Shown one piece after another: positions 39,937 to 58,482 of a DNA stretch of 64,000 nucleotides. Within the stretch, counting starts at the first letter, position 1, and each line of letters begins with the position of its first letter. The DNA is taken from assembly GCA_001794125.1 (NCBI GenBank), contig MGJF01000002.1, positions 37,751 through 101,750 of the forward strand, in the 5' to 3' direction. This DNA is from Candidatus Yanofskybacteria bacterium RIFCSPHIGHO2_01_FULL_43_32. GTDB lineage: Bacteria; Patescibacteriota; Minisyncoccia; 2-02-FULL-40-12; GWA2-44-9. A program made the position numbers and the translations under genes. The notes under the pieces are model-generated. The model saw nothing but the letters and a program-made list of their open reading frames with translations, was not told the origin of the DNA and did not search any database.

Positions 39937-40467
39937 TATTGCCGCGGCGACCACGGTTGTCCAGAGGCCGTCTTTGTTGCCGATGGCTGATTGAGTGTAA
40001 TTTGTCGTCTTGAATATTTGTTCGGAGGCTTTGAATATTTGTTCTCTTTCGTCCCATGCGGTATCGGGGTCAAACTCTATGCCCAATGTGGTTGCCAGCA
40101 TTTGCGCGGCCAGGTCTTCCGCGTAATCGCCGGCTTTTTCATCTGTTTCCCCGAAAGGGTGGTGTTCCGACAGATAACCGTATTGATTCGGATCTTGCGG
40201 AATGGCAACGCCTATCGAAGCCGAAATCAACCTGTTCGGCTCATTGGTGGCATTGCGGGCGATGACGGCGTGAACCACCGAACCCGGCGGCAGTAATTTA
40301 ATTCCTTCTTCGCGGGTTATTTTTTTAACATTCGGCGGGTAGATGCTGGATACCGCAACTAAATTGTACGGCGCGACTCCGGCGGCGCGCAACGCCAGCT
40401 CGAAAGAAGTTAAATATTCTTTGTGCGTTCCCGAACCTTTGGTGAAAAATATTTTTGTCGGCAGCAT
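39925..40467 (-). CDS. pdaD: pyruvoyl-dependent arginine decarboxylase
   Basis: [39 protein letters not shown] and [12 protein letters not shown] align with M. jannaschii PdaD [38 protein letters not shown] / ISAAISVAIPKD; Ser-Ser self-cleavage site present. Confidence 0.75.
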
Positions 40468-40526
40468 AATTTAATTTTACAACAAAAAAATATTTTTTAA
40501 ATATTTTTTTGTTGATAACTAAAATA

Positions 40527-40560
40527 AAACCGCATTGAATGCGATTTTATTTTGAGATAA
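40527..40560 (-). terminator. rho-independent terminator for the wbaP-like gene
   Basis: On the - strand: atcgcatt-c-aatgcggt (one G-U) followed by tttatttt. Confidence 0.45.
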
Positions 40561-40573
40561 TTTTTTAAAAAAA

Positions 40574-41911
40574 TTATTTTCCCGACCTCTGAAACATAAT
40601 CCTGATAGTTTTGAGAGCAATTCCAATATCCAAGATCAAAGAGCGGTTTTTGATATAGTACAGATCGTATTTTAATTTTTCGGCCGCATCGGCCACGGAA
40701 GAACCGTAGCGGAAATTTATCTGGGCCCAGCCGGACAGCCCCGGTTTTATCAGATATCTTTCTTCATAGAACGGAACTGTTTTTAATTGTTCATTAAACT
40801 CCGGCCGCTCTGCCCGCGGTCCGATAAATGCCATCTGTCCTTTGAGGATGTTCCATAATTGGGGCAACTCATCTATTCTTGTTTTACGCATAAATCCGCC
40901 CGCTTTGGTTATTCTGGGGTCGTTGTTTGAGGCCCAAATCGCGCCGGTGTTTTTCTCGGCGTCTTTATTCATCGTTCTGAATTTAATAATTTCAAAAGTT
41001 TTACCAAGCTGGCCGACCCTTTTCTGTTTGTAAAAAACCGGTCCTTCCGAAGTCATTTTGATCAAAAAAACGATAAAAGGATAAAACAGCAAGCTGAACA
41101 GGCCCAGAACAACGGCGAAAACCAAGTCGCTGACGCGTTTGGCCATTTCGTATGCTCTTTTGTTTCCTTCGTTCAGATTTTCCAGAAACCAAATCTGGTT
41201 GATTGCCCCTAAAGGAACCATACCCGTCAGGCGTTCGTAAAAAGAAGCAAGGTTTACGAAACCAACCTTTTGCTCAAGAGACTTGTAAAAGATGTCTATT
41301 ATTTCAGGAACCTGATATGCTTCCGGGCTTAAAACGATTGTGTCTATTTTTTCTTCTTTAATTACCATGTCAATGTGCTTTAGTTTGTCCGAAGCTATGT
41401 CTATGACGGACTTAATCTCATAACCTAACTGGGGATTTTCTTTTATGAACAGATCAAGTTCAAGGGACTGATTATTCGTCCCCACGATGAGTATTGATTT
41501 CTTGAAACCTTTTTGCAGAATATTATTGGAAACAGAACGGCTAAGAAATTCCAGTCCCGTAAAAACAGCCACAAAAATCAACAGATTTGTTTTCGGCGTA
41601 ATTCCATACAGGGGAATTACATAGAAAAACAACACGGAAATTGCGGCGGCTATGATAATTGCCCGGAAAAGCGCCGAATAAAAATGGATATTGTTTCTTA
41701 GCAGCTTTGGTTCGTAGAGATTAGCAATATAAAAAACTAAAAGCCAGGAAATGAAAATCAAAGAAAACGGGTATAAGTGTACCGTATATTTCTCATAGAG
41801 ATTGTCGGGATACCGGATTAGAAGAGTCAATACCAGGGAAAAATAAAGAATCGTAATATCCGAGAAGAAAATTAAGAATTTTTTCACCCTCTGATTATAC
41901 CAAATTTGCAA
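40574..41911 (-). CDS. initiating polyprenyl-phosphate hexose-1-phosphate transferase (WbaP/EpsL 'bacterial sugar transferase' family)
   Basis: N-terminal TM helices; C-terminal RVSDLVFAVVLGLFSLLFYPFIVFLIKMTSEGPVFYKQKRVGQLGKTFEIIKFRTM ... PGLSGWAQI. Confidence 0.8.
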   Translation of the reverse strand: MQIWYNQRVKKFLIFFSDITILYFSLVLTLLIRYPDNLYEKYTVHLYPFSLIFISWLLVFYIANLYEPKLLRNNIHFYSALFRAIIIAAAISVLFFYVIPLYGITPKTNLLIFVAVFTGLEFLSRSVSNNILQKGFKKSILIVGTNNQSLELDLFIKENPQLGYEIKSVIDIASDKLKHIDMVIKEEKIDTIVLSPEAYQVPEIIDIFYKSLEQKVGFVNLASFYERLTGMVPLGAINQIWFLENLNEGNKRAYEMAKRVSDLVFAVVLGLFSLLFYPFIVFLIKMTSEGPVFYKQKRVGQLGKTFEIIKFRTMNKDAEKNTGAIWASNNDPRITKAGGFMRKTRIDELPQLWNILKGQMAFIGPRAERPEFNEQLKTVPFYEERYLIKPGLSGWAQINFRYGSSVADAAEKLKYDLYYIKNRSLILDIGIALKTIRIMFQRSGK

Positions 41912-45396: not shown

Positions 45397-46722
45397 ATAG
45401 CCCCAAGTTTGCAGCTTATCGCTGTCTTCTGACCACGTAGCGCCGATATCGGTTCGATAAAACATATTTACCAGCATAATATTTTCTATTCTCAAATATG
45501 CTTGTTTTCTCGCCTCTTCCATGGTTGAGCCGCTTCCTGTGACGATGAGCACATATGCGCTTTCCCCGGCGACTCTCCATACTCCGTCGGTTATTTTTAC
45601 GTCACCCAAATGGACGCCCTCGGTGTTCTGTTTTTTAAAAAGTATGGAAAGGTCTTTGTATATTTCAAATTCGGACTTATCTTCAGATGGAAATGGCGGA
45701 ACAACGCAAACCACTCCTACCTGGAACCCCTTTTTTGTTTTTAGGTCATAGTCTTCCTTGTGAGCCAATGCGTAAAAGAACTCTCCCCATTCCGAAAGCA
45801 CCCCCTCTTGCTGAATATTAATCGTCGGATATCCGAACCGGCAGGTAAATTCGAGAGGATAGATACCGCGTCCGTTGACGATACAGTTAATGTCTATATA
45901 TCCCACATACCCCGACTTATGAAGGTCTTCTTCCATCTTTCCCGTAGTTTCACCGAACAATTTATTGGATTCGCACCAGAACATTGAAGTACCCATCTCA
46001 CCGGTCATTGGTCCCAATTCGCCGGGAAATAATCTTTTGTGTTCAAAAGCTATCAGGATCGGGGTAATGAATTTATTGCCGTTGAAAAATGCCGATGCGC
46101 CGACCTCAACGCCCGAAACGAATTTTTGAAGCTGGAATTGTTTAATTTTTTTGCTGATTATTTTTTTATTTTGCTCGAGAATCTCATAAAGATCGCGTCC
46201 GTCTTCTTCTTTTCCCGCAAACAACAAACCTCTCCATTCGCCGGGAACAAATCCGGAAGGTTTGTAGACATATCTTCCGGGATTTTCTTTTATGAATTGC
46301 AGGGCTTTATCATAATCATCAAAATCCCACGATGGAAGAGTCAGCATTCCCAAACGCTTCATCTCGGCCTGGCCGAATTCGCGGTCATCTTCAAGCCTGT
46401 CGGTATATTCGCTTCCGCCTATCACGGCTTTGCCTTCTTTTCTTAGCGCATCGGCTTCTTTACCGAAACCCACATCGTCAAAAATCACAACATCCGCCCA
46501 TTTAACGTGGTCTTTCCAATCGCTGACTTTTTCAATAAAGCCATCATATTCATCCGCTACATCTTTGATGCAGCATTTTACTTTATGGCCTTCGTTTTGT
46601 ATTTTCCATGCTAAGTCGCCGGAGAGCGCTTCCCACGATACAAATAAAAATTTATATTTCTTGCCCTGAACTTGTTGAAGGGTTTTTTCTCCGTTGTGGC
46701 CGTTGCCGTTTCCGTTTGCCAT
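45388..46722 (-). CDS. phosphoribosylamine-glycine ligase (PurD)-like ATP-grasp enzyme
   Basis: LAWKIQNEGHKV; FTCRFGYPT (PurD FNCRFGDPE); C-terminal RVAGESAYVLIVTGSGSTMEEARKQAYLRIENI...RTDIG (PurD GGRVLCVTALGHTVAEAQKRAY...RKDIG). Confidence 0.6.
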   Translation of the reverse strand: MANGNGNGHNGEKTLQQVQGKKYKFLFVSWEALSGDLAWKIQNEGHKVKCCIKDVADEYDGFIEKVSDWKDHVKWADVVIFDDVGFGKEADALRKEGKAVIGGSEYTDRLEDDREFGQAEMKRLGMLTLPSWDFDDYDKALQFIKENPGRYVYKPSGFVPGEWRGLLFAGKEEDGRDLYEILEQNKKIISKKIKQFQLQKFVSGVEVGASAFFNGNKFITPILIAFEHKRLFPGELGPMTGEMGTSMFWCESNKLFGETTGKMEEDLHKSGYVGYIDINCIVNGRGIYPLEFTCRFGYPTINIQQEGVLSEWGEFFYALAHKEDYDLKTKKGFQVGVVCVVPPFPSEDKSEFEIYKDLSILFKKQNTEGVHLGDVKITDGVWRVAGESAYVLIVTGSGSTMEEARKQAYLRIENIMLVNMFYRTDIGATWSEDSDKLQTWGYLY

Positions 46723-46779
46723 TTTCTAATTTAAATTTACGCCTTAAATAAAATCTATACAAGAAATTTTGTGCATAAG

Positions 46780-46808
46780 TTGAATTAAAAAATAATTAGT
46801 TGTATAGT
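46780..46808 (+). promoter_or_regulatory. putative promoter TTGAAT-17nt-TATAGT immediately upstream of hpf ATG (possibly leaderless)
   Basis: -10 ends 6 nt before ATG 46815. Confidence 0.3.
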
Positions 46809-46814
46809 TTTATT

Positions 46815-47144
46815 ATGAAAATAGATATTTCTACAAAAAACATGACTCTGGACGAACCGCTCCGAATTTTTATAGAAGATAAAATAGGCGGATTGGACCA
46901 TTTGATAGGCAACGACAAGGGGCAGGCGAAAGTTGAGGTGGGAATGCCGTCCAAACATCACCGTTCAGGGGATATTTTTTCCGCCGAGGTTAACCTGTCT
47001 CTTGGGGGCAAATTATTAAGAGCAACCTGCACTCATGAAGATCTTCGCAATGCCATTACCGATGTCAAAGACGAACTCCAAGTCCAGATAAAAAAGTTCA
47101 AAGAAAAAACGACCGAGCGAAGAGCGAGGAAGTACCGAGCGTAG
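46815..47144 (+). CDS. hpf: ribosome hibernation promoting factor / sigma54-modulation protein (HPF/YfiA/RaiA family)
   Basis: MKIDISTKNMTLDEPLRIFIEDKIGGLDHL ... AEVNLSLGGKLLRATCTHEDLRNAITD matches HPF architecture. Confidence 0.8.
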   Translation: MKIDISTKNMTLDEPLRIFIEDKIGGLDHLIGNDKGQAKVEVGMPSKHHRSGDIFSAEVNLSLGGKLLRATCTHEDLRNAITDVKDELQVQIKKFKEKTTERRARKYRA

Positions 47145-47318
47145 AAACGCGAATGCAGAACAGATCTGGCAAGGCAGCCTAAAGAATAGCTGACACAACC
47201 TCCATGCATGCTGCGGAGCATACTTTTCTAAAATACTACTGATTTTATAAAAGCATGCTCCCTCCGCCGGTTGTTTTGGTTGTGTATAATGTTTGGCAAT
47301 AGAGGTTCAAATTTTTTA

Positions 47319-47942
47319 ATGAAAAATCTTAAAGATGCAATTATTGTTCTTGGTGGCGGAATAGAGCCAGATGGCTCATTGCCGGACATACCAAAACTTA
47401 GAATAACTAAAGGCATTGAGCTACTGAATAATGGAGTTGCTCTAAGAATTATCATGTCTGGGAAATGGGGATTTTGGCTTGAGAAATAACCAGCCAGAAC
47501 CGAAGCCGAAGCAATGAGGGAATACGCTGTTGGTTTAGGCACTTCAGCAGACGCTATTCTTAAAGAGGACGTTTCAAAAGACACAATTGGCAACGCATAC
47601 TTCTGTAAACTGAATTTTTTAGAACCTAACGATTGGCACAATATTGTTATTGTAACTTCGGATTACCACATACCAAGAACTCGCTATATTTTTGAGAAAG
47701 TTTTAGGAAGTGGTTACACAATTGAATTTGCGTCAGTAGGAAGCAAGCTATCGCCCGAAGAATTTGCTGCTAAAATTAATAAAGAAAATAAGACCACAGA
47801 GTTTCTAAAAAAGTGGTTTGACTCAATAAGTCCAGGAGATACCAAAGCCATTAAAGAACTGATGTATGCCAAACATCCAGGTTATACTGAAAATCCAGAA
47901 GTAACCAAGGAGCAATTATTAAAAATGTTAGGCAGAAGTTAA
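47319..47942 (+). pseudogene. DUF218 (YdcF/ElyC/SanA) family gene interrupted by an in-frame TAA at 47487-47489
   Basis: IIVLGGGIEPDGSLPD...IMSGKWGFWLEK*PARTEAEAMREYAVGLG...VIVTSDYHIPRT; both halves are in the same frame and span the DUF218 SGGxG...EAEAM signature. Confidence 0.5.
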
Positions 47943-48266
47943 GCGCAGCCCCATCGTTTTTATGTCACTTTGACGAGGCGAGGTTGATAAGTAGTTTAGC
48001 GAAAGGCCTTGCCTGATTTTCTCACTTATGACGAATGGTTGGCAGTGTCTGTGAGCGACGCTATTTTTCTGGGAAACCGAGCCGGAGGTGGCAGGAACGG
48101 GCTCGCTCAAAGAGCGAACCGCATGGCCTGACGGAGGTGGCTCCGGGCGGTCAGAAAAATTAGAAGCGAGCAGATACACTGCCCCATGAGGAGTCCGGTG
48201 AGGAAAATCAGGTGAGGCATGGAGCGTCTTTATTTTTGCTCAAAACCGTGCTAAAATGGCGGGATA
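47943..48266 (+). ncRNA. candidate structured noncoding RNA / leader upstream of secA (identity unknown)
   Basis: About 320 nt with no credible ORF, conspicuously GC-rich relative to its surroundings, repeated ggaggtggc elements and multiple short inverted repeats. Confidence 0.3.
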
Positions 48267-50996
48267 ATGCCATTTTTATCTAAGATATTCGGGGACGCAA
48301 ATGCCCGTTATATTAAGTCATTACAACCCACAGTTGACCGCATAAACTTACTCGAAAAGAACTTTGAGAAACTTTCGGACACACAATTAAAGGAAAAGAC
48401 CTCTGAATTCAGACAACGGCTCAACGGCTCACCGGGTGAGCCGTTGGACGATATTTTACCTGAAGCCTTTGCCGCGGTCAGGGAGGCGTCAAAACGCACA
48501 TTGGGCCAGCGTCATTTTGATGTTCAGCTGATGGGCGGGATAGCTCTGCACCGCGGGAATATCTCTGAAATGAAAACCGGAGAAGGCAAAACATTGGTCG
48601 CCACATTGGCCGCATATTTGAACGCCATTACCGGCGCCGGTGTACATGTTGTTACCGTGAACGATTATCTGTCAAGGCGCGATGCGGTTTGGATGGGACA
48701 GATTTACAATGCTCTCGGTTTGACCACGGGCTGCATCAATCACGAAGCGAGTTATTTGTACGATTTTTCTCATACCGACAAGAGCGAAGATAAAGAACGC
48801 GACACCGAAGGAAGCTTTAAAATTGTCCATGAATTTTTAAAACCGGTCACAAGACGGGAGGCATACTTGGCCGATATTACTTACGGCACGAATAATGAAT
48901 TTGGTTTTGATTATCTCCGCGACAATATGGCATATGAAGAAGCGCAGATGGCCCAGGCCAAAGGCCACAACTTCGCAATTGTTGACGAGGTGGACTCTAT
49001 TTTAATAGACGAGGCCAGAACGCCTTTGATAATTTCCGCGCCGGTTGAGGATTCCGGGAAATTATATGAAACATTTTCAAAAATCGTCCCGCGTCTTGTA
49101 GAAAACGAGGATTATAACGTAGATGAAAAATTAAAAGCTGTTTCAATAACTGAAAAAGGAATAGAAAAAGTTGAAAAGACTTTGGGGCTTACCAATATAT
49201 ATGACGAAGGCGGTACCCGGCACGTTCACCATATGGAGCAGGCCTTGAAAGCCCAGATATTGTTTAAACGCGACCGTGATTATGTCGTGAATCCGTCAGC
49301 TGACGGAGGCGAGGTAATAATTGTGGACGAATTTACAGGGCGCATGATGCCCGGCCGGAGATGGTCCGAAGGTCTGCATCAGGCCGTTGAAGCCAAAGAA
49401 GGTGTAAAAATAGAAAAAGAATCCAAGACATTGGCGACAATTACTTTTCAGAATTATTTCCGTTTGTATAAAAAGCTTTCAGGTATGACCGGAACCGCCC
49501 AATCATCCGCTGAAGAATTTCACAAGGTATATAAATTAAATTCTTTTGTTATTCCGACAAACAAGCCGATGGTCAGAAAGGACTTGCCGGACAGAATTTA
49601 TAAAACAGAAGCCGGTAAATTCAGGGCAATTGTTAGGGAAATAAAAGAAATGCACGAAAAAGGTCAGCCGGTTCTCGTGGGTACGGTTTCAATTGAGAAG
49701 AACGAATTGTTGTCGGCGATGCTTGAAAGAGAAGGTATTTCTCATAATGTTTTGAATGCTAAACAACATGAGAAGGAAGCCGAAATGCATGCTCAAGCCG
49801 GAAGGCAGGGAGCGGTTACGGTGGCTACTAATATGGCAGGAAGAGGCGTGGATATTATTCTCGGTGGAAATCCGCCTTCGGCTGATGAAGCGAGCAAAGC
49901 TCGCGAAGGCGGCGGTTTACATGTTATCGGCACTGAACGCCATGAAGCAAGGCGGATAGACGACCAGTTAAGAGGCCGCGCCGGAAGACAGGGCGACCCC
50001 GGTTCTTCAAGATTTTTTGTTTCAGTAGAGGACGAGCTGGTTAGGATATTTGGAGGAGATAAATTAAAGAATCTTATGGACCGGCTCGGCGTGGGAGAAG
50101 ATGACGTTATAGAGAACAGGTTTGTTTCAAGCGCCATTGCCCAGGCCCAAGCCAGAATCGAAGGCCATAATTTCGATATCAGGAAATATGTTCTGGAATA
50201 CGATGATGTCATGAACAAGCACCGCGAAGCGATATACCGTTTGAGAAAAGAAATTCTGTCATCCGAAAGCGCAAAAGAGATTGTTTTAGATTATCTGCGG
50301 ATTCAAATCAGGAATTTGATAAACTTTCATACCCAAGGGCACTCGGAGTGGTCTCCTGGCCGTGCTTTAGCCGGCCGAGGAACTCTGTCGGACTATAAAT
50401 GGAATACAGAAGAAATAGGGGAATCATTGAAAGCGTTATTGCCTGTCGGCGACGAAATTAGTGCTCAATTAGTTGAAACCGCCAAGACTGGAAACAAAGA
50501 CGAATTAATCGAATTTGTTATCAAAAAATCGGAGGAATTATACGAAATAAGAGAAAAAGAAATGGGCGCGGAATCCGCCGGTTGGCGGATGCGACGCCTG
50601 GAAAAGCTTGTCTTGCTCCGTACGATTGACGAATTGTGGATTGACCATATTGAATCTATGGAATATTTGCGAGATTCGGTGCGCTTGCGGGCTTACGGCC
50701 AGAGAGACCCGTTGGTTGAATATAAGATAGAAGGACAGAATATGTATAATCAGCTGATGATGTCGGTTGGAGCTCAAACGGCTAATCTTATATTTAAAGT
50801 AAGTTTTATGGAACAACCAAAGATGGCCAATATTCAGGAGAAACGGCCGGATATTGTCGGAGATTCACATAAACATCAAGAAATAACAAACGAACCGGCG
50901 CATCGAAACACGGAATCATCGGAATCTAAACTCGGCCGCAACGATCCCTGCTGGTGCGGGTCAAAAAAGAAATATAAGAAGTGCCATGGGAAATAA
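48267..50996 (+). CDS. secA: preprotein translocase ATPase SecA
   Basis: [35 protein letters not shown] Walker [20 protein letters not shown]-terminal [15 protein letters not shown] zinc finger. Confidence 0.95.
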
Positions 50997-56507: not shown

Positions 56508-58306
56508 TTGCTCTTCAGCGAGCGATTCTTCTGGCGGCTGTCGCGGCGTATCTTGCGACGCCTTTTGGCGCCGGAGCCTCATCCGAAGACGGCACAATAA
56601 ATTCAACGTTTAAATATGCCTGGGGAGAAAACATCGGCTGGATAAATTTCGGTACATCCGAGGGCAATGTTCATATAACCGATTCAGGGATGACCGGCTA
56701 TGCCTGGGGAGAGAATGTCGGCTGGATATCGCTTAACTGTTCCAATACAAGTTCGTGCGGCACGGTGGACTATGGCGTTTCAAATGACAGTCACGGAAAT
56801 CTTACCGGCTATGCCTGGGGCGAGAATACAGGCTGGATATCATTTGATAATGTATTTAGCAGTGTGAATATAAGCCAGACCGGGGTGTTCAGCGCTTATG
56901 CCTGGGGCGAGAATACAGGCTGGATATCATTTAACTGTTCCAATACAAGTTCGTGCGGCACGGTGGACTATGGACTCAAGACAGATTATATCCCCAGCCC
57001 GTCAGGGGGGGGAGGATTTGGTGATCCGCCATCTCCGAGCAGTACGCCGGCTCCTTCACCGACACCAGAAGAATCTCCGACCCCAAGTCCGTCGGTCTCA
57101 CCCAGTCCGGAAATAACTCCTGAACCATCAGCAGAGCCATCCGTCACGCCGCCTCCGGCCATGCCGGAAGCTCCGCCTCCCGATCAAGCCCCTCCGGCTC
57201 CGCCTACTTCTTCCGGTCCGCCATTCATATCGGTGCCGGGAATCGGCGTCTTGCCTCAAGGAGTGCAGGATGTGATAAACCAAACAGTGTTGAATGTTGT
57301 TGAGGCTGTCCAGACAGTCACTAAAGTGACCGTAGAGGTAGCCAAGGTTGTTGCCCCGGTTGTTGAAAAATCGGCGGAACCAGTCACTCAAGTTACGACT
57401 GCCACGACGGGAGTCTCAAGCGCGGTAGCGGTTGCGCCTATGGCCAACTCGGCCAGTAACGCCGGCAATATACTTGAATTCTTACGCCAGAATCTCTGGG
57501 TGGCGGTGGGTCTTAAACGCAGAAGAAAACCATGGGGCACCGTTTATAACGGGAAAACGAAACAGCCGATACCTTTTGCTAAAGTTGAACTTTTAAACCC
57601 AAGTTCCCGTCTTTTGGAATCCCAGGTCACCGATATGAACGGGCGCTATGGTTTTTTGGTCACCCCCGAGTCCACGGAACAAAAAGTCGTTGAGATCCAA
57701 ATCCAGGCCCGTAAAGAAGAATACGTTTTCCCGGCGCAAGGCATTATTCCGCCTAACGATACGATGCTATACGGCAATGTTTATGTCGGCGGCATTGCCA
57801 AAGTTGATGTTGAAGCTCTGGCGGGTTTTGATATTCCGATGAGCAAGCTTACGCCAGACAAATTATTGGATACGGCCGTTAAAAAACCGCTTGCCAAGCT
57901 CAACAACAGCATTACGATCCTGTTAAATTTCGGTTTTTATTTGGGATTGGTCATGGCGCCTCTGTCTTATATTCTGACTCCGAGCAATTTTAATCTGGCT
58001 ATACTGGCGGGTTTCTTTGTTGTAAACATCCCCCGATTCGCCGGCTTGACTCAAAGGCAATTTGGTATGGTGGTAGATTCTTCTACAAGCGTTCCGATAC
58101 CCTTTGCCTTGATAACTCTGAACGACCGCGAAGGGAAGCGGGTCGGATTTACGGTATCCGATGAGAGGGGCCGTTATTTCCTGCTCGTGCCTAAAGGACA
58201 CTATTCAATCCTGGCTTATACGCCGGCGACAATAATTCCGACCAGGACTTTCAGTCGGGAATTTAAAACCAGAAAAGGCTGGATAAAAGAAGAGCTCCGG
58301 TTATAA
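56468..58306 (+). CDS. secreted/membrane protein with 4-5 tandem ~40-aa YAWGENxGWIxF(NCSNTSSCGTVDYG) repeats, Pro-rich linker, CarboxypepD_reg-like domains and C-terminal TM helices
   Basis: Own AxA signal-peptide-like segment (AAVAAYLATPFGAGA|SS); repeats visible in protein and DNA. Confidence 0.5.
   Translation: MHNKQTKYRIVSIVALQRAILLAAVAAYLATPFGAGASSEDGTINSTFKYAWGENIGWINFGTSEGNVHITDSGMTGYAWGENVGWISLNCSNTSSCGTVDYGVSNDSHGNLTGYAWGENTGWISFDNVFSSVNISQTGVFSAYAWGENTGWISFNCSNTSSCGTVDYGLKTDYIPSPSGGGGFGDPPSPSSTPAPSPTPEESPTPSPSVSPSPEITPEPSAEPSVTPPPAMPEAPPPDQAPPAPPTSSGPPFISVPGIGVLPQGVQDVINQTVLNVVEAVQTVTKVTVEVAKVVAPVVEKSAEPVTQVTTATTGVSSAVAVAPMANSASNAGNILEFLRQNLWVAVGLKRRRKPWGTVYNGKTKQPIPFAKVELLNPSSRLLESQVTDMNGRYGFLVTPESTEQKVVEIQIQARKEEYVFPAQGIIPPNDTMLYGNVYVGGIAKVDVEALAGFDIPMSKLTPDKLLDTAVKKPLAKLNNSITILLNFGFYLGLVMAPLSYILTPSNFNLAILAGFFVVNIPRFAGLTQRQFGMVVDSSTSVPIPFALITLNDREGKRVGFTVSDERGRYFLLVPKGHYSILAYTPATIIPTRTFSREFKTRKGWIKEELRL
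56618..56982 (+). repeat. array of degenerate ~100-bp intragenic direct repeats; two ~80-bp copies (about 56696-56776 and 56894-56982) share a long identical core (ccaatacaagttcgtgcggcacggtggactatgg)
   Basis: Direct comparison of DNA strings. Confidence 0.75.
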
Positions 58307-58350
58307 TTGGTTTGTATAATCGATAACTTTAATTTTTCAGCGCCTGAAAA

Positions 58351-58387
58351 GGCGTTTTTAATTTGACTGTTTAACTTTTTGTTGTAG
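58351..58387 (+). repeat. direct repeat copy 1 (ggcgtttttaatttgactgtttaactttttgttgtag), includes a TTGACT -35-like box
   Basis: Re-occurs at 59946-59984 with two single-T indels. Confidence 0.8.
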
Positions 58388-58482
58388 TTAAGAAAATTTT
58401 TACTTAAAATAAGTACTTGACTTGTCGTAAAATTTAGGTATTCTAAGATTCAGCAATTTACCAATTAAAACCGGAGCTGTGA

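Follow-up and report, generated by a model that had tools for sequence, protein, structure and literature searches.

Invertons and pdif modules are DNA segments that lie between inverted sites and occur in both orientations. The gap between hpf and secA that we analyzed in Candidatus Yanofskybacteria resembles them: inverted, related sequences enclose a variable cargo, and two co-occurring lineages (the window contig and L170, from one sample) have it in opposite orientations. However, their flanks are recombinase sites of 10–30 bp, whereas here the flanks are structured elements of 115–285 nt. Unlike invertons, moreover, the gap has no recombinase nearby, and its two orientations were met in lineages 13% apart in SecA and not inside a single population.

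The REP/BIME/REPIN, ERIC, Correia and Rickettsia palindromic elements are also similar, being imperfect palindromes that lie after stop codons, between genes. Elements of the REP/BIME/REPIN type often comprise two unit types in inverted arrangement, and they act as RNA hairpins affecting termination and mRNA stability. They measure 35–150 nt, however, and are present in tens to hundreds of copies per genome, while the element described here is about 285 nt long, occurs once in the window (the whole stretch of DNA that was analyzed, 64,000 nucleotides), is tied to one locus and has an ortholog with compensated base pairs.

Some large bacterial RNAs are comparable as well. The large SRP RNA of the Bacillus type has about 270–280 nt and, like the element, consists of a short 5' domain followed by a single long helix, but the GGTCAG...GAAGC.AGCAG string of the element is not apical and there is no GNRA loop. 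6S RNA (SsrS), the sequences of which are poorly conserved between clades, resembles the element in being rod-like, about 200 nt long and rich in GC within an AT-rich genome; unlike 6S RNA, the element is missing from the locus in close relatives and is accompanied by an inverted partner element. The raiA motif RNA (RF03072), about 200 nt long and found with raiA/hpf genes in Firmicutes and Actinobacteria, is likewise a large structured RNA of unknown biochemical function adjoining hpf/raiA, but the element lies downstream and not upstream of hpf and forms a single rod instead of a multi-stem structure. In the literature on structured RNAs of CPR/Patescibacteria nothing relevant was found.

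The element lies within the interval 47943–48266, which begins after a DUF218 stop codon (47942) and runs up to the secA ATG (48267). The locus contains the following features:

46800–47144 (plus strand): hpf (ribosome hibernation factor; Pfam Ribosomal_S30AE, E = 8e-15), the conserved left flank of a variable gap
47187–47301 (minus strand): fam2, the partner hairpin element of about 115 nt (five-copy profile match, E = 3e-32)
47322–47942 (plus strand): DUF218/YdcF-like cargo gene with an in-frame TAA at 47487–47489
47943–47980 (plus strand): 5' motif V1 (GCGCAGCCCCATCGTTTTTATGTCACTTTGAC...), the most widely conserved piece of the element
47995–48006 (plus strand): linker TTTAGCGAAAGG, mostly identical in the ortholog of the related locus L169
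48007–48217 (plus strand): rod-like hairpin of 211 nt, recognized from MFE, z-scores and the L169 ortholog
48218–48248 (plus strand): 3' tail CATGGAGCGTCTTTATTTTTGCTCAAAACCG, whose 'TGGAGCG' end travels with the element
48249–48257 (plus strand): TGCTAAAAT, an extended –10-like promoter element, 9 nt before the secA ATG
48267–50996 (plus strand): secA, an ORF of 909 aa (SecA Pfam domains found on the identical protein P0001), the conserved right flank

Comparison of hpf 3' ends across loci revealed that hpf of the window lineage has gained 48 nt, inserted in frame, through which a new stop arises; the ancestral C-terminal coding sequence remains just downstream. The cargo gene matches positions 1–34 of the DUF218 Pfam profile before the in-frame TAA and positions 46–118 after it, and is likely a pseudogene or affected by a sequence error.

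As the earlier note had proposed, 47943–48266 is noncoding: its sole sizeable ORF is an 83-aa antisense frame (47928–48179) for which neither Pfam nor a collection of 5.8 billion proteins yielded a match. The idea of a gene remnant, also raised there, was rejected along with that of an intact protein-coding gene, both for want of Pfam matches and protein homologs and because the indels relative to the L169 ortholog (6, 1, 1, 4 and 2 nt), not being all multiples of three, break every reading frame of the element. The raised GC content is real, amounting to 0.52 over 47943–48266 and 0.565 at 48001–48200, compared with a window mean of 0.415 (sd 0.061) and 0.35–0.39 in the upstream flank; high GC alone is not unique, because several coding stretches elsewhere reach similar values. 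The repeat CGGAGGTGGC is indeed present twice (48083–48092 and 48132–48141), and the inverted repeats that had been quoted, GGCTCGCTC/GAGCGAACC at 48100–48120 and the CCGAGCCGGAG/CTCCGGGCGG stem, exist. All of them turned out to be parts of a single long imperfect hairpin at 48007–48217. The duplicated GGAGGTGGC is not a repeat in the L169 ortholog, i.e., the duplication is not conserved.

The fold of the region is exceptional and strand-specific. The MFE of the plus strand is –127.6 kcal/mol (z = –5.2 relative to dinucleotide shuffles) and that of the minus strand –110.3. When both strands of the 64 kb were scanned in sliding segments of 240 nt (about 1600 per strand) with GC correction, 48001–48240 on the plus strand was the top outlier (z = –4.7; the next one, –3.3), and on the minus strand the same segment was outside the top 12. 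In four out of four elements that start with V1 (window, L169, L166, L230), the strand running from the motif to the hairpin folds 9–25 kcal/mol better than its complement. The G excess likewise tracks the orientation of the element and not that of the flanking genes: in L169 the element shows a skew of +0.14 on the minus strand, as against +0.11 for hpf and +0.12 for secA on the plus strand. Such a pattern speaks for selection acting on an RNA read in that direction and against a mutational bias of the replication strands. The original view of the interval as a candidate structured RNA thus gained in strength, both from its fold and from the conservation of the structure, with compensatory changes, in the ortholog described below.

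In full, the element (fam1; 47943–48226, plus strand, about 285 nt) consists of the conserved 38-nt V1 motif (GCSYAGCCCCRTYGYTTTTATGTCACTTTGAY), a short linker and the 211-nt rod, which has at least 62 base pairs. The helices of the rod are located as follows:

48007–48022 with 48202–48217: P1, followed by variable middle helices
48063–48071 with 48152–48160: P5
48076–48087 with 48141–48151: P6
48089–48095 with 48127–48133: P7
48098–48100 with 48119–48121: CGG/CCG helix
48103–48108 with 48112–48117: apical stem with an AAA loop

V1 is present in one copy in the window, where none is expected by chance, and strong single copies (E about 1e-12) were detected in the related loci L166 (plus strand), L169 (minus strand) and L230 (minus strand). 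It is always followed by a long hairpin in the same direction, and in L166 and L230 these rods are of unrelated sequence. According to RNAalifold, the linker TTTAGCGAAAGG may, tentatively, pair with CC..TCGTT of V1 and close a small 5' domain; two variable positions of V1 exchange C and U opposite a G in this predicted pairing. At the other, outer end of the element, TGGAGCG/TGGAACG is retained whichever way the element is oriented. The T-rich run in the 3' tail may serve as a weak terminator tail, as the –35/UP region of the secA promoter, or as both; the terminator scan called nothing at this run and nothing immediately before secA.

Several other functions of these parts were considered and rejected. 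V1 does not behave as a promoter with TTGAC as the –35 box: the spacing to –10-like hexamers differs between the window and L169, which has a deletion of 6 nt, and the promoter scan was blank. Nor is it half of a terminator, as no complementary arm was found upstream in the window. A riboswitch-like alternative pairing between V1 and the 3' strand of P1 forms seven out of eight pairs in the window and is not kept in L169. Finally, a CsrA-type sponge was dismissed, the six to seven GGA motifs being close to the number expected from base composition by our own estimate.

The element is absent from Rfam. With Rfam 15 (4227 families) no match was obtained at gathering thresholds in the whole window, and permissive searches returned noise alone, at E ≤ 10 over 47700–48500 and 46650–47750 and at E ≤ 5 in five related loci (L166, L168, L169, L171, L230). 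ARAGORN detected no tRNA or tmRNA in the window. The Rfam scan for SRP, RNase P, 6S and tmRNA that the earlier note had called for was therefore run without a match to any of them, and an SRP/RNase P/6S-like identity, which it had offered, found no support at either gathering or permissive thresholds. RNase P RNA was rejected in the absence of RNaseP_bact_a/b matches, and tmRNA in the absence of both ARAGORN calls and Rfam matches. For 6S RNA, there was no match at E ≤ 10, and the rod is near-continuous, with no conserved central bubble: the mid-rod loop of the window (48050–48062/48161–48173) is replaced by a 5-bp helix in L169. The faint likeness to SRP domain IV found no support from any covariance model. 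The GGUCAG...GAAGC string is present, but it belongs to the 3' strand of the rod, at a distance of about 45 nt from the apex, and the GNRA loop is missing, as had been remarked. The apex itself (UCGCUC-AAA-GAGCGA in the window, UGGC-UUUA-GCCA in L169) has neither a GNRA loop nor the symmetric/asymmetric loops of SRP RNA. The raiA motif RNA was rejected as well, with no RF03072 match in the window, L166, L168, L169, L171 or L230. The element is probably a new, lineage-specific structured RNA, distinct from SRP, RNase P and 6S RNAs.

As related contigs, we took the loci of SecA proteins 80–90% identical. An ortholog of the element was found in L169 at 1624–1908 on the minus strand (72% identity over 301 nt, E = 1e-29). 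It is identical in four independent assemblies (L169, L170, L172 and L173), whose SecA is about 87% identical to that of the window; L170 originates from the same sample as the window contig, k141_364857 of ENA assembly ERZ4903072. The 3' end of this ortholog touches the stop codon of hpf, and a 93-aa ORF and another structured element are located between it and secA.

Comparison of the 62-pair structure between the window and L169 revealed pairing in 123 of 124 cells (99.2%), a value derived from two distinct sequences that also supplied the structure. Nine pairs are changed on both sides and 15 on one side; G-U occurs in 14 cells and A-C in none. All five structure measures exceed 500 out of 500 shuffles, and registers slid by 1–3 columns give pairing in only 36–51% of cells. 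The apical stem is paired in both lineages though its sequence and length differ (UCGCUC/GAGCGA vs. UGGC/GCCA). Between the two lineages, identity is only 54% at 4-fold degenerate sites of secA but 73% in the paired columns of the element, which include invariant blocks of 13–19 nt. Judged by these substitutions, the ortholog shows purifying selection and compensatory change. The conservation of the structure between the window and L169 appears strong but not statistically formal, since a formal covariation statistic is impossible with only two distinct fam1 sequences. The covariation in relatives that had been suggested as a check was thus seen as compensatory changes in one ortholog, but it concerns two distinct sequences only.

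The distribution of the element so far is narrow, comprising one subclade of Candidatus Yanofskybacteria. Homologs of SecA assign the organism of the window to this group, which belongs to the Parcubacteria of the CPR. No homolog was found by blastn, nhmmer or covariance model R1 in 160 wider secA loci from genomes and metagenomes; their SecA proteins are at most 73% identical, except for L001, the contig of which ends 81 nt upstream, and in most of them hpf directly adjoins secA. Among 171 loci, covariance model R1 matched the window and L169 alone. In viral contigs, pattern scans and a SecA scan gave chance matches or distant relatives only, and there was no match in phage and plasmid collections.

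The partner element fam2 of the window begins about 10 nt beyond the ancestral stop of hpf and faces away from the cargo gene. Other copies were found in L166 (minus strand), L169 (plus strand), L230 (plus strand) and L171 (two copies, one each way). The stem sequences of fam2 vary between copies with complementarity kept, and it has no Rfam match. Its 5' motif is related to that of fam1, most evidently in L169, and the two have some short blocks in common, so they may be old paralogs, although this is not proven. The gene order in the window and in the related loci is as follows:

Window: hpf, fam2 (minus), DUF218, fam1 (plus), secA
L169: hpf, fam1 (minus), ORF93, fam2 (plus), secA
L166: hpf, fam2 (minus), ORF249 (minus), V1-type rod (plus), secA
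L230: hpf, V1-type rod (minus), ORF173, fam2 (plus), secA
L171: sodA, fam2 (minus), about 440 nt, fam2 (plus), secA
L168: two elements back to back without cargo, before secA
L167: a hpf-secA gap of 54 nt with none of the module
L162 and L174: cargo ORFs without hairpin elements

The hpf-secA gap is thus built as an inverted pair. Paired elements always face outward, with their 5' motifs adjoining the cargo. The left element begins no more than about 10 nt from the upstream stop codon, taken as the ancestral one of hpf for the window and L230; the right one ends with ...GGAGCG, followed by a T-rich run and then by the conserved TGCTAAAAT. The cargo ORFs are mutually unrelated and, apart from the DUF218 gene of the window, belong to no Pfam family. 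The element was found once in the 64-kb window, so a dispersed repeat within it was rejected; fam2 is also single-copy there, and neither family was detected outside the hpf-secA gap in 20 Yanofskybacteria loci. The same boundary positions are taken by different sequence families, which speaks for a generic, structural role.

The explanation that we favor, with somewhat less than even confidence, is that 47943–48226 (plus strand) is a lineage-restricted structured RNA boundary element, one of an outward-facing pair flanking the cargo. The features that point to it are read from the sequences: precise boundary positions, outward orientation, interchangeable families and a strand asymmetry of the RNA type. 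Outward transcripts from the cassette would fold into rods, which, working in cis, would give the RNA a stable end or boundary, pausing or terminating transcription and protecting the 3' end. In this way the rods would insulate secA (sense) and hpf (antisense) from transcription of the cassette, and the invariant loop and stem blocks would probably bind a protein partner. Here we infer that the element is transcribed and where its transcription starts, that it acts in cis at a boundary and not as a trans sRNA, and that it has a protein partner. A pure terminator role would be redundant in L169 and L230, because the cargo genes there have their own canonical terminators ahead of the right-hand element.

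It should be added that two observations on the ends of the element speak against the boundary reading. The scan found no sigma-70-like promoter on the sense strand upstream of V1, either in the window or in L169. The T-run of the tail is not a canonical terminator, because it lies 10 nt beyond the stem.

It is conceivable, though rather unlikely, that the element is an independent gene of a trans-acting small or medium RNA. V1 would then be the seed or a protein handle, the rod the body and the T-rich tail the terminator, and the pair, with its opposite orientations, would represent paralogous RNA genes. The layout is indeed sRNA-like, the 5' end being the most conserved, the body variable and the 3' end U-rich, and the function does not seem to depend on which way the element points relative to its neighbor genes. 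Since the right-hand element of L169 and L230 lies beyond the cargo terminator, a transcription start of its own would be required there. The long invariant blocks (13–19 nt) are found in loops and also inside stems, which suggests sequence-specific recognition and agrees no less well with an RNA that acts in trans or binds a protein than with a passive boundary. Yet no promoter was detected, V1 precedes rods of unrelated sequence in L166 and L230, and without exception the elements coincide with the cassette boundaries. The strongest duplex predicted between V1 and a target (–36.3 kcal/mol) is inside secA, at nt 204–247, and the site recurs in L169 and L230; we treat it as no better than chance, since unrelated next hits reach –35 kcal/mol and the sequences are not independent.

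A further reading, which we consider unlikely, takes the elements for the structured ends of a non-autonomous cassette that inserts into the hpf-secA gap or inverts there, with the conserved end motifs as recombination sites. Close relatives may have or lack the module as a whole (compare the 54-nt gap of L167, and L162 and L174 with cargo without elements), its cargo genes are variable, unrelated and unannotated, and its elements abut the stop codon of hpf or sodA. It occurs in both orientations: as in invertons, the elements of the window and L169 are in swapped, inverted positions, and this holds between lineages only. A small GC-rich mobile palindrome was, moreover, found ahead of secA in L166, with a copy of its arm, 94% identical, within the 3' end of secA in L230. 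Against mobility, the 64 kb contain one copy of each family, and across the 20 Yanofskybacteria loci both are confined to the gap. Genes called within 3 kb include neither a transposase nor a recombinase at any locus, nor did clear terminal inverted repeats or a target-site duplication emerge. The motifs at the outer and inner ends resemble inverted repeats only weakly, and the empty and occupied sites are too diverged for a duplication to be recognized. The 72% identity with compensatory change indicates an old, selected sequence and not a recent copy. Furthermore, the strand-specific G-U bias lies on opposite physical strands at the two ends, which fits RNA better than single-stranded-DNA transposition. 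Still more doubtful is an undescribed type of CPR cassette, in which variable cargo would be enclosed between outward-facing RNA-structured ends of 115–285 nt with conserved inner and outer motifs, and the unit could be inserted or flipped, so that either end would read into secA (sense) or hpf (antisense). If it existed, such a cassette would couple the turnover of accessory genes to the control of two core genes of translation and secretion.

The close neighborhood of secA had also suggested a leader. However, TGCTAAAAT is kept in all relatives with 80–90% identical SecA, including L167 with its 54-nt gap, and in L230 the promoter scan gave TTGAAT-17-TAAAAT with a preceding TG. Since TGCTAAAAT ends so close to the ATG, secA is probably transcribed from just ahead of its start codon into a near-leaderless mRNA. 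The element, for its part, is independent of orientation relative to secA, the ortholog in L169, L170, L172 and L173 being on the opposite strand and abutting hpf. A cis-regulatory 5' leader of secA (riboswitch, attenuator or SecM-type), in which transcription would begin at V1 or ahead of it and the rod would control read-through or translation, is therefore the least likely of the three rivals and very improbable: an element on the plus strand does lie directly upstream of secA in all element-bearing lineages (window, L166, L168, L169, L171, L230), and by inspection of the sequence the 3' stem strand could choose either 47949–47969 or 48006–48025 as its 5' partner, but the constant position and orientation expected of a leader are contradicted by the inverted hpf-side ortholog of L169, which is under the same selection and leaves another gene and a further element before secA, the alternative pairing, checked by hand, is not conserved in L169, and there is no terminator immediately before secA.

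The genomes of CPR bacteria are tiny and contain hardly any noncoding DNA, and to our knowledge almost no noncoding RNAs beyond the universal ones have been described in them. As the element of about 285 nt is the best-folding stretch in 64 kb of such a genome, it is unlikely to be idle. Its context is unusual: outward-facing hairpin pairs flank a hot spot of gene turnover, and strains of a single sample show the arrangement in either orientation. If the element were a free-standing RNA, it would represent a new large RNA class. If the pairs form a cassette boundary or inversion system, they would offer a handle on how reduced genomes exchange accessory genes while sparing their essential neighbors.

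The cassette, the variable cargo gene in the hpf-secA gap, is flanked by two hairpin elements. Besides the GC-rich element before secA, a second conserved hairpin element, fam2, was revealed in the opposite orientation. At least five copies of fam2 were found in the related secA-bearing loci (L-numbers), each of them located at a cassette boundary. The positions of fam2 and of the insertion in the neighbouring hpf gene are as follows:

Window 47187–47301, minus strand: fam2, core CAACCGGCGGAGGGAG...CTCCGCAG..GCATGGAGGTTGTGT
L171 1682–1836, minus strand: left fam2 copy
L171 2279–2436, plus strand: right fam2 copy, inverted relative to the left one
Window 47097–47192, L168 374–442 and L230 1819–1883: region of the insertion near the hpf 3' end

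No match to fam2 was found in Rfam, and it may represent a candidate RNA family deserving a separate entry. The two inverted copies in L171 enclose about 440 nt; the left flank of this locus is occupied by sodA in place of hpf, and the left copy begins 1 nt past the stop codon of sodA.

Close to its 3' end, hpf carries, at these three positions, a 48-nt in-frame insertion that introduces a new stop codon and alters the C-terminus to ...TERRARKYRA*, while the ancestral C-terminal coding sequence (..RTDLARQPKE*) persists directly downstream, untranslated. The cargo gene itself (DUF218/YdcF-like, 47322–47942) is interrupted by an in-frame TAA at 47487–47489. The Pfam profile spans both sides of this codon, with positions 1–34 before it and 46–118 after it; the gene is likely a pseudogene, unless the TAA arose by faulty sequencing or marks a recoding event.

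At the other end of the gap, within 48249–48269, TGCTAAAAT is located 9 nt upstream of the secA ATG and is kept in all close relatives; the GCGGGAYR block between the two is conserved too. Because the conserved TGCTAAAAT is so close to the ATG, the sequence suggests that the secA mRNA is near-leaderless. Immediately upstream of this promoter-like site lies GAGCGTCTTTATTTTTGCTCAAAACCGTGC (48222–48251), which is 70% identical to the 30-nt segment GAGCGACGCTATTTTTCTGGGAAACCGAGC (48053–48082) of the rod, the 211-nt hairpin of the GC-rich element. This likeness is possibly a trace of the element's origin, or may be due to chance. More distant relatives have a tiny lysine-rich ORF (MAAKKKAKK..., about 20–40 aa) before secA, with a long KRK-repeat version in L088, and the DnaA-box-like TTATCCACA farther upstream:

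L084, L085, L087, L092 and L093, 0.1–0.4 kb upstream of secA: lysine-rich ORF region

Other folding outliers were revealed by GC-corrected z scores of 240-nt windows sliding along each strand of the 64 kb. The strongest on the minus strand (40400–40720, z = -3.8) is strongly AT-rich (GC 0.25–0.32). In the second on the plus strand (58293–58478, z = -3.3), the two 19-nt arms of an inverted repeat, AGCTCCGGTTATAATTGGT and ACCAATTAAAACCGGAGCT, are complementary at 95% and enclose an entire intergenic region with a terminator and a promoter-like site.

Window 40469–40525 and 40521–40553: nested palindromes inside 40400–40720
L166 1741–1841: region with the GC-rich palindrome of 54 nt, CCCCGCACCAATC...GATTGGTGCGGGG
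L230 5727–5775: copy of one arm of the 54-nt palindrome

In L166 the secA promoter and the first 10 codons are duplicated, and the 54-nt palindrome is placed between this duplicate and the true start of secA. The arm recurring in L230 (94% identical) lies within the secA 3' end and severs the SEC-C zinc motif of the C-terminus, although its sequence can still be read farther downstream. The palindrome resembles a small mobile element able to land in coding sequence.
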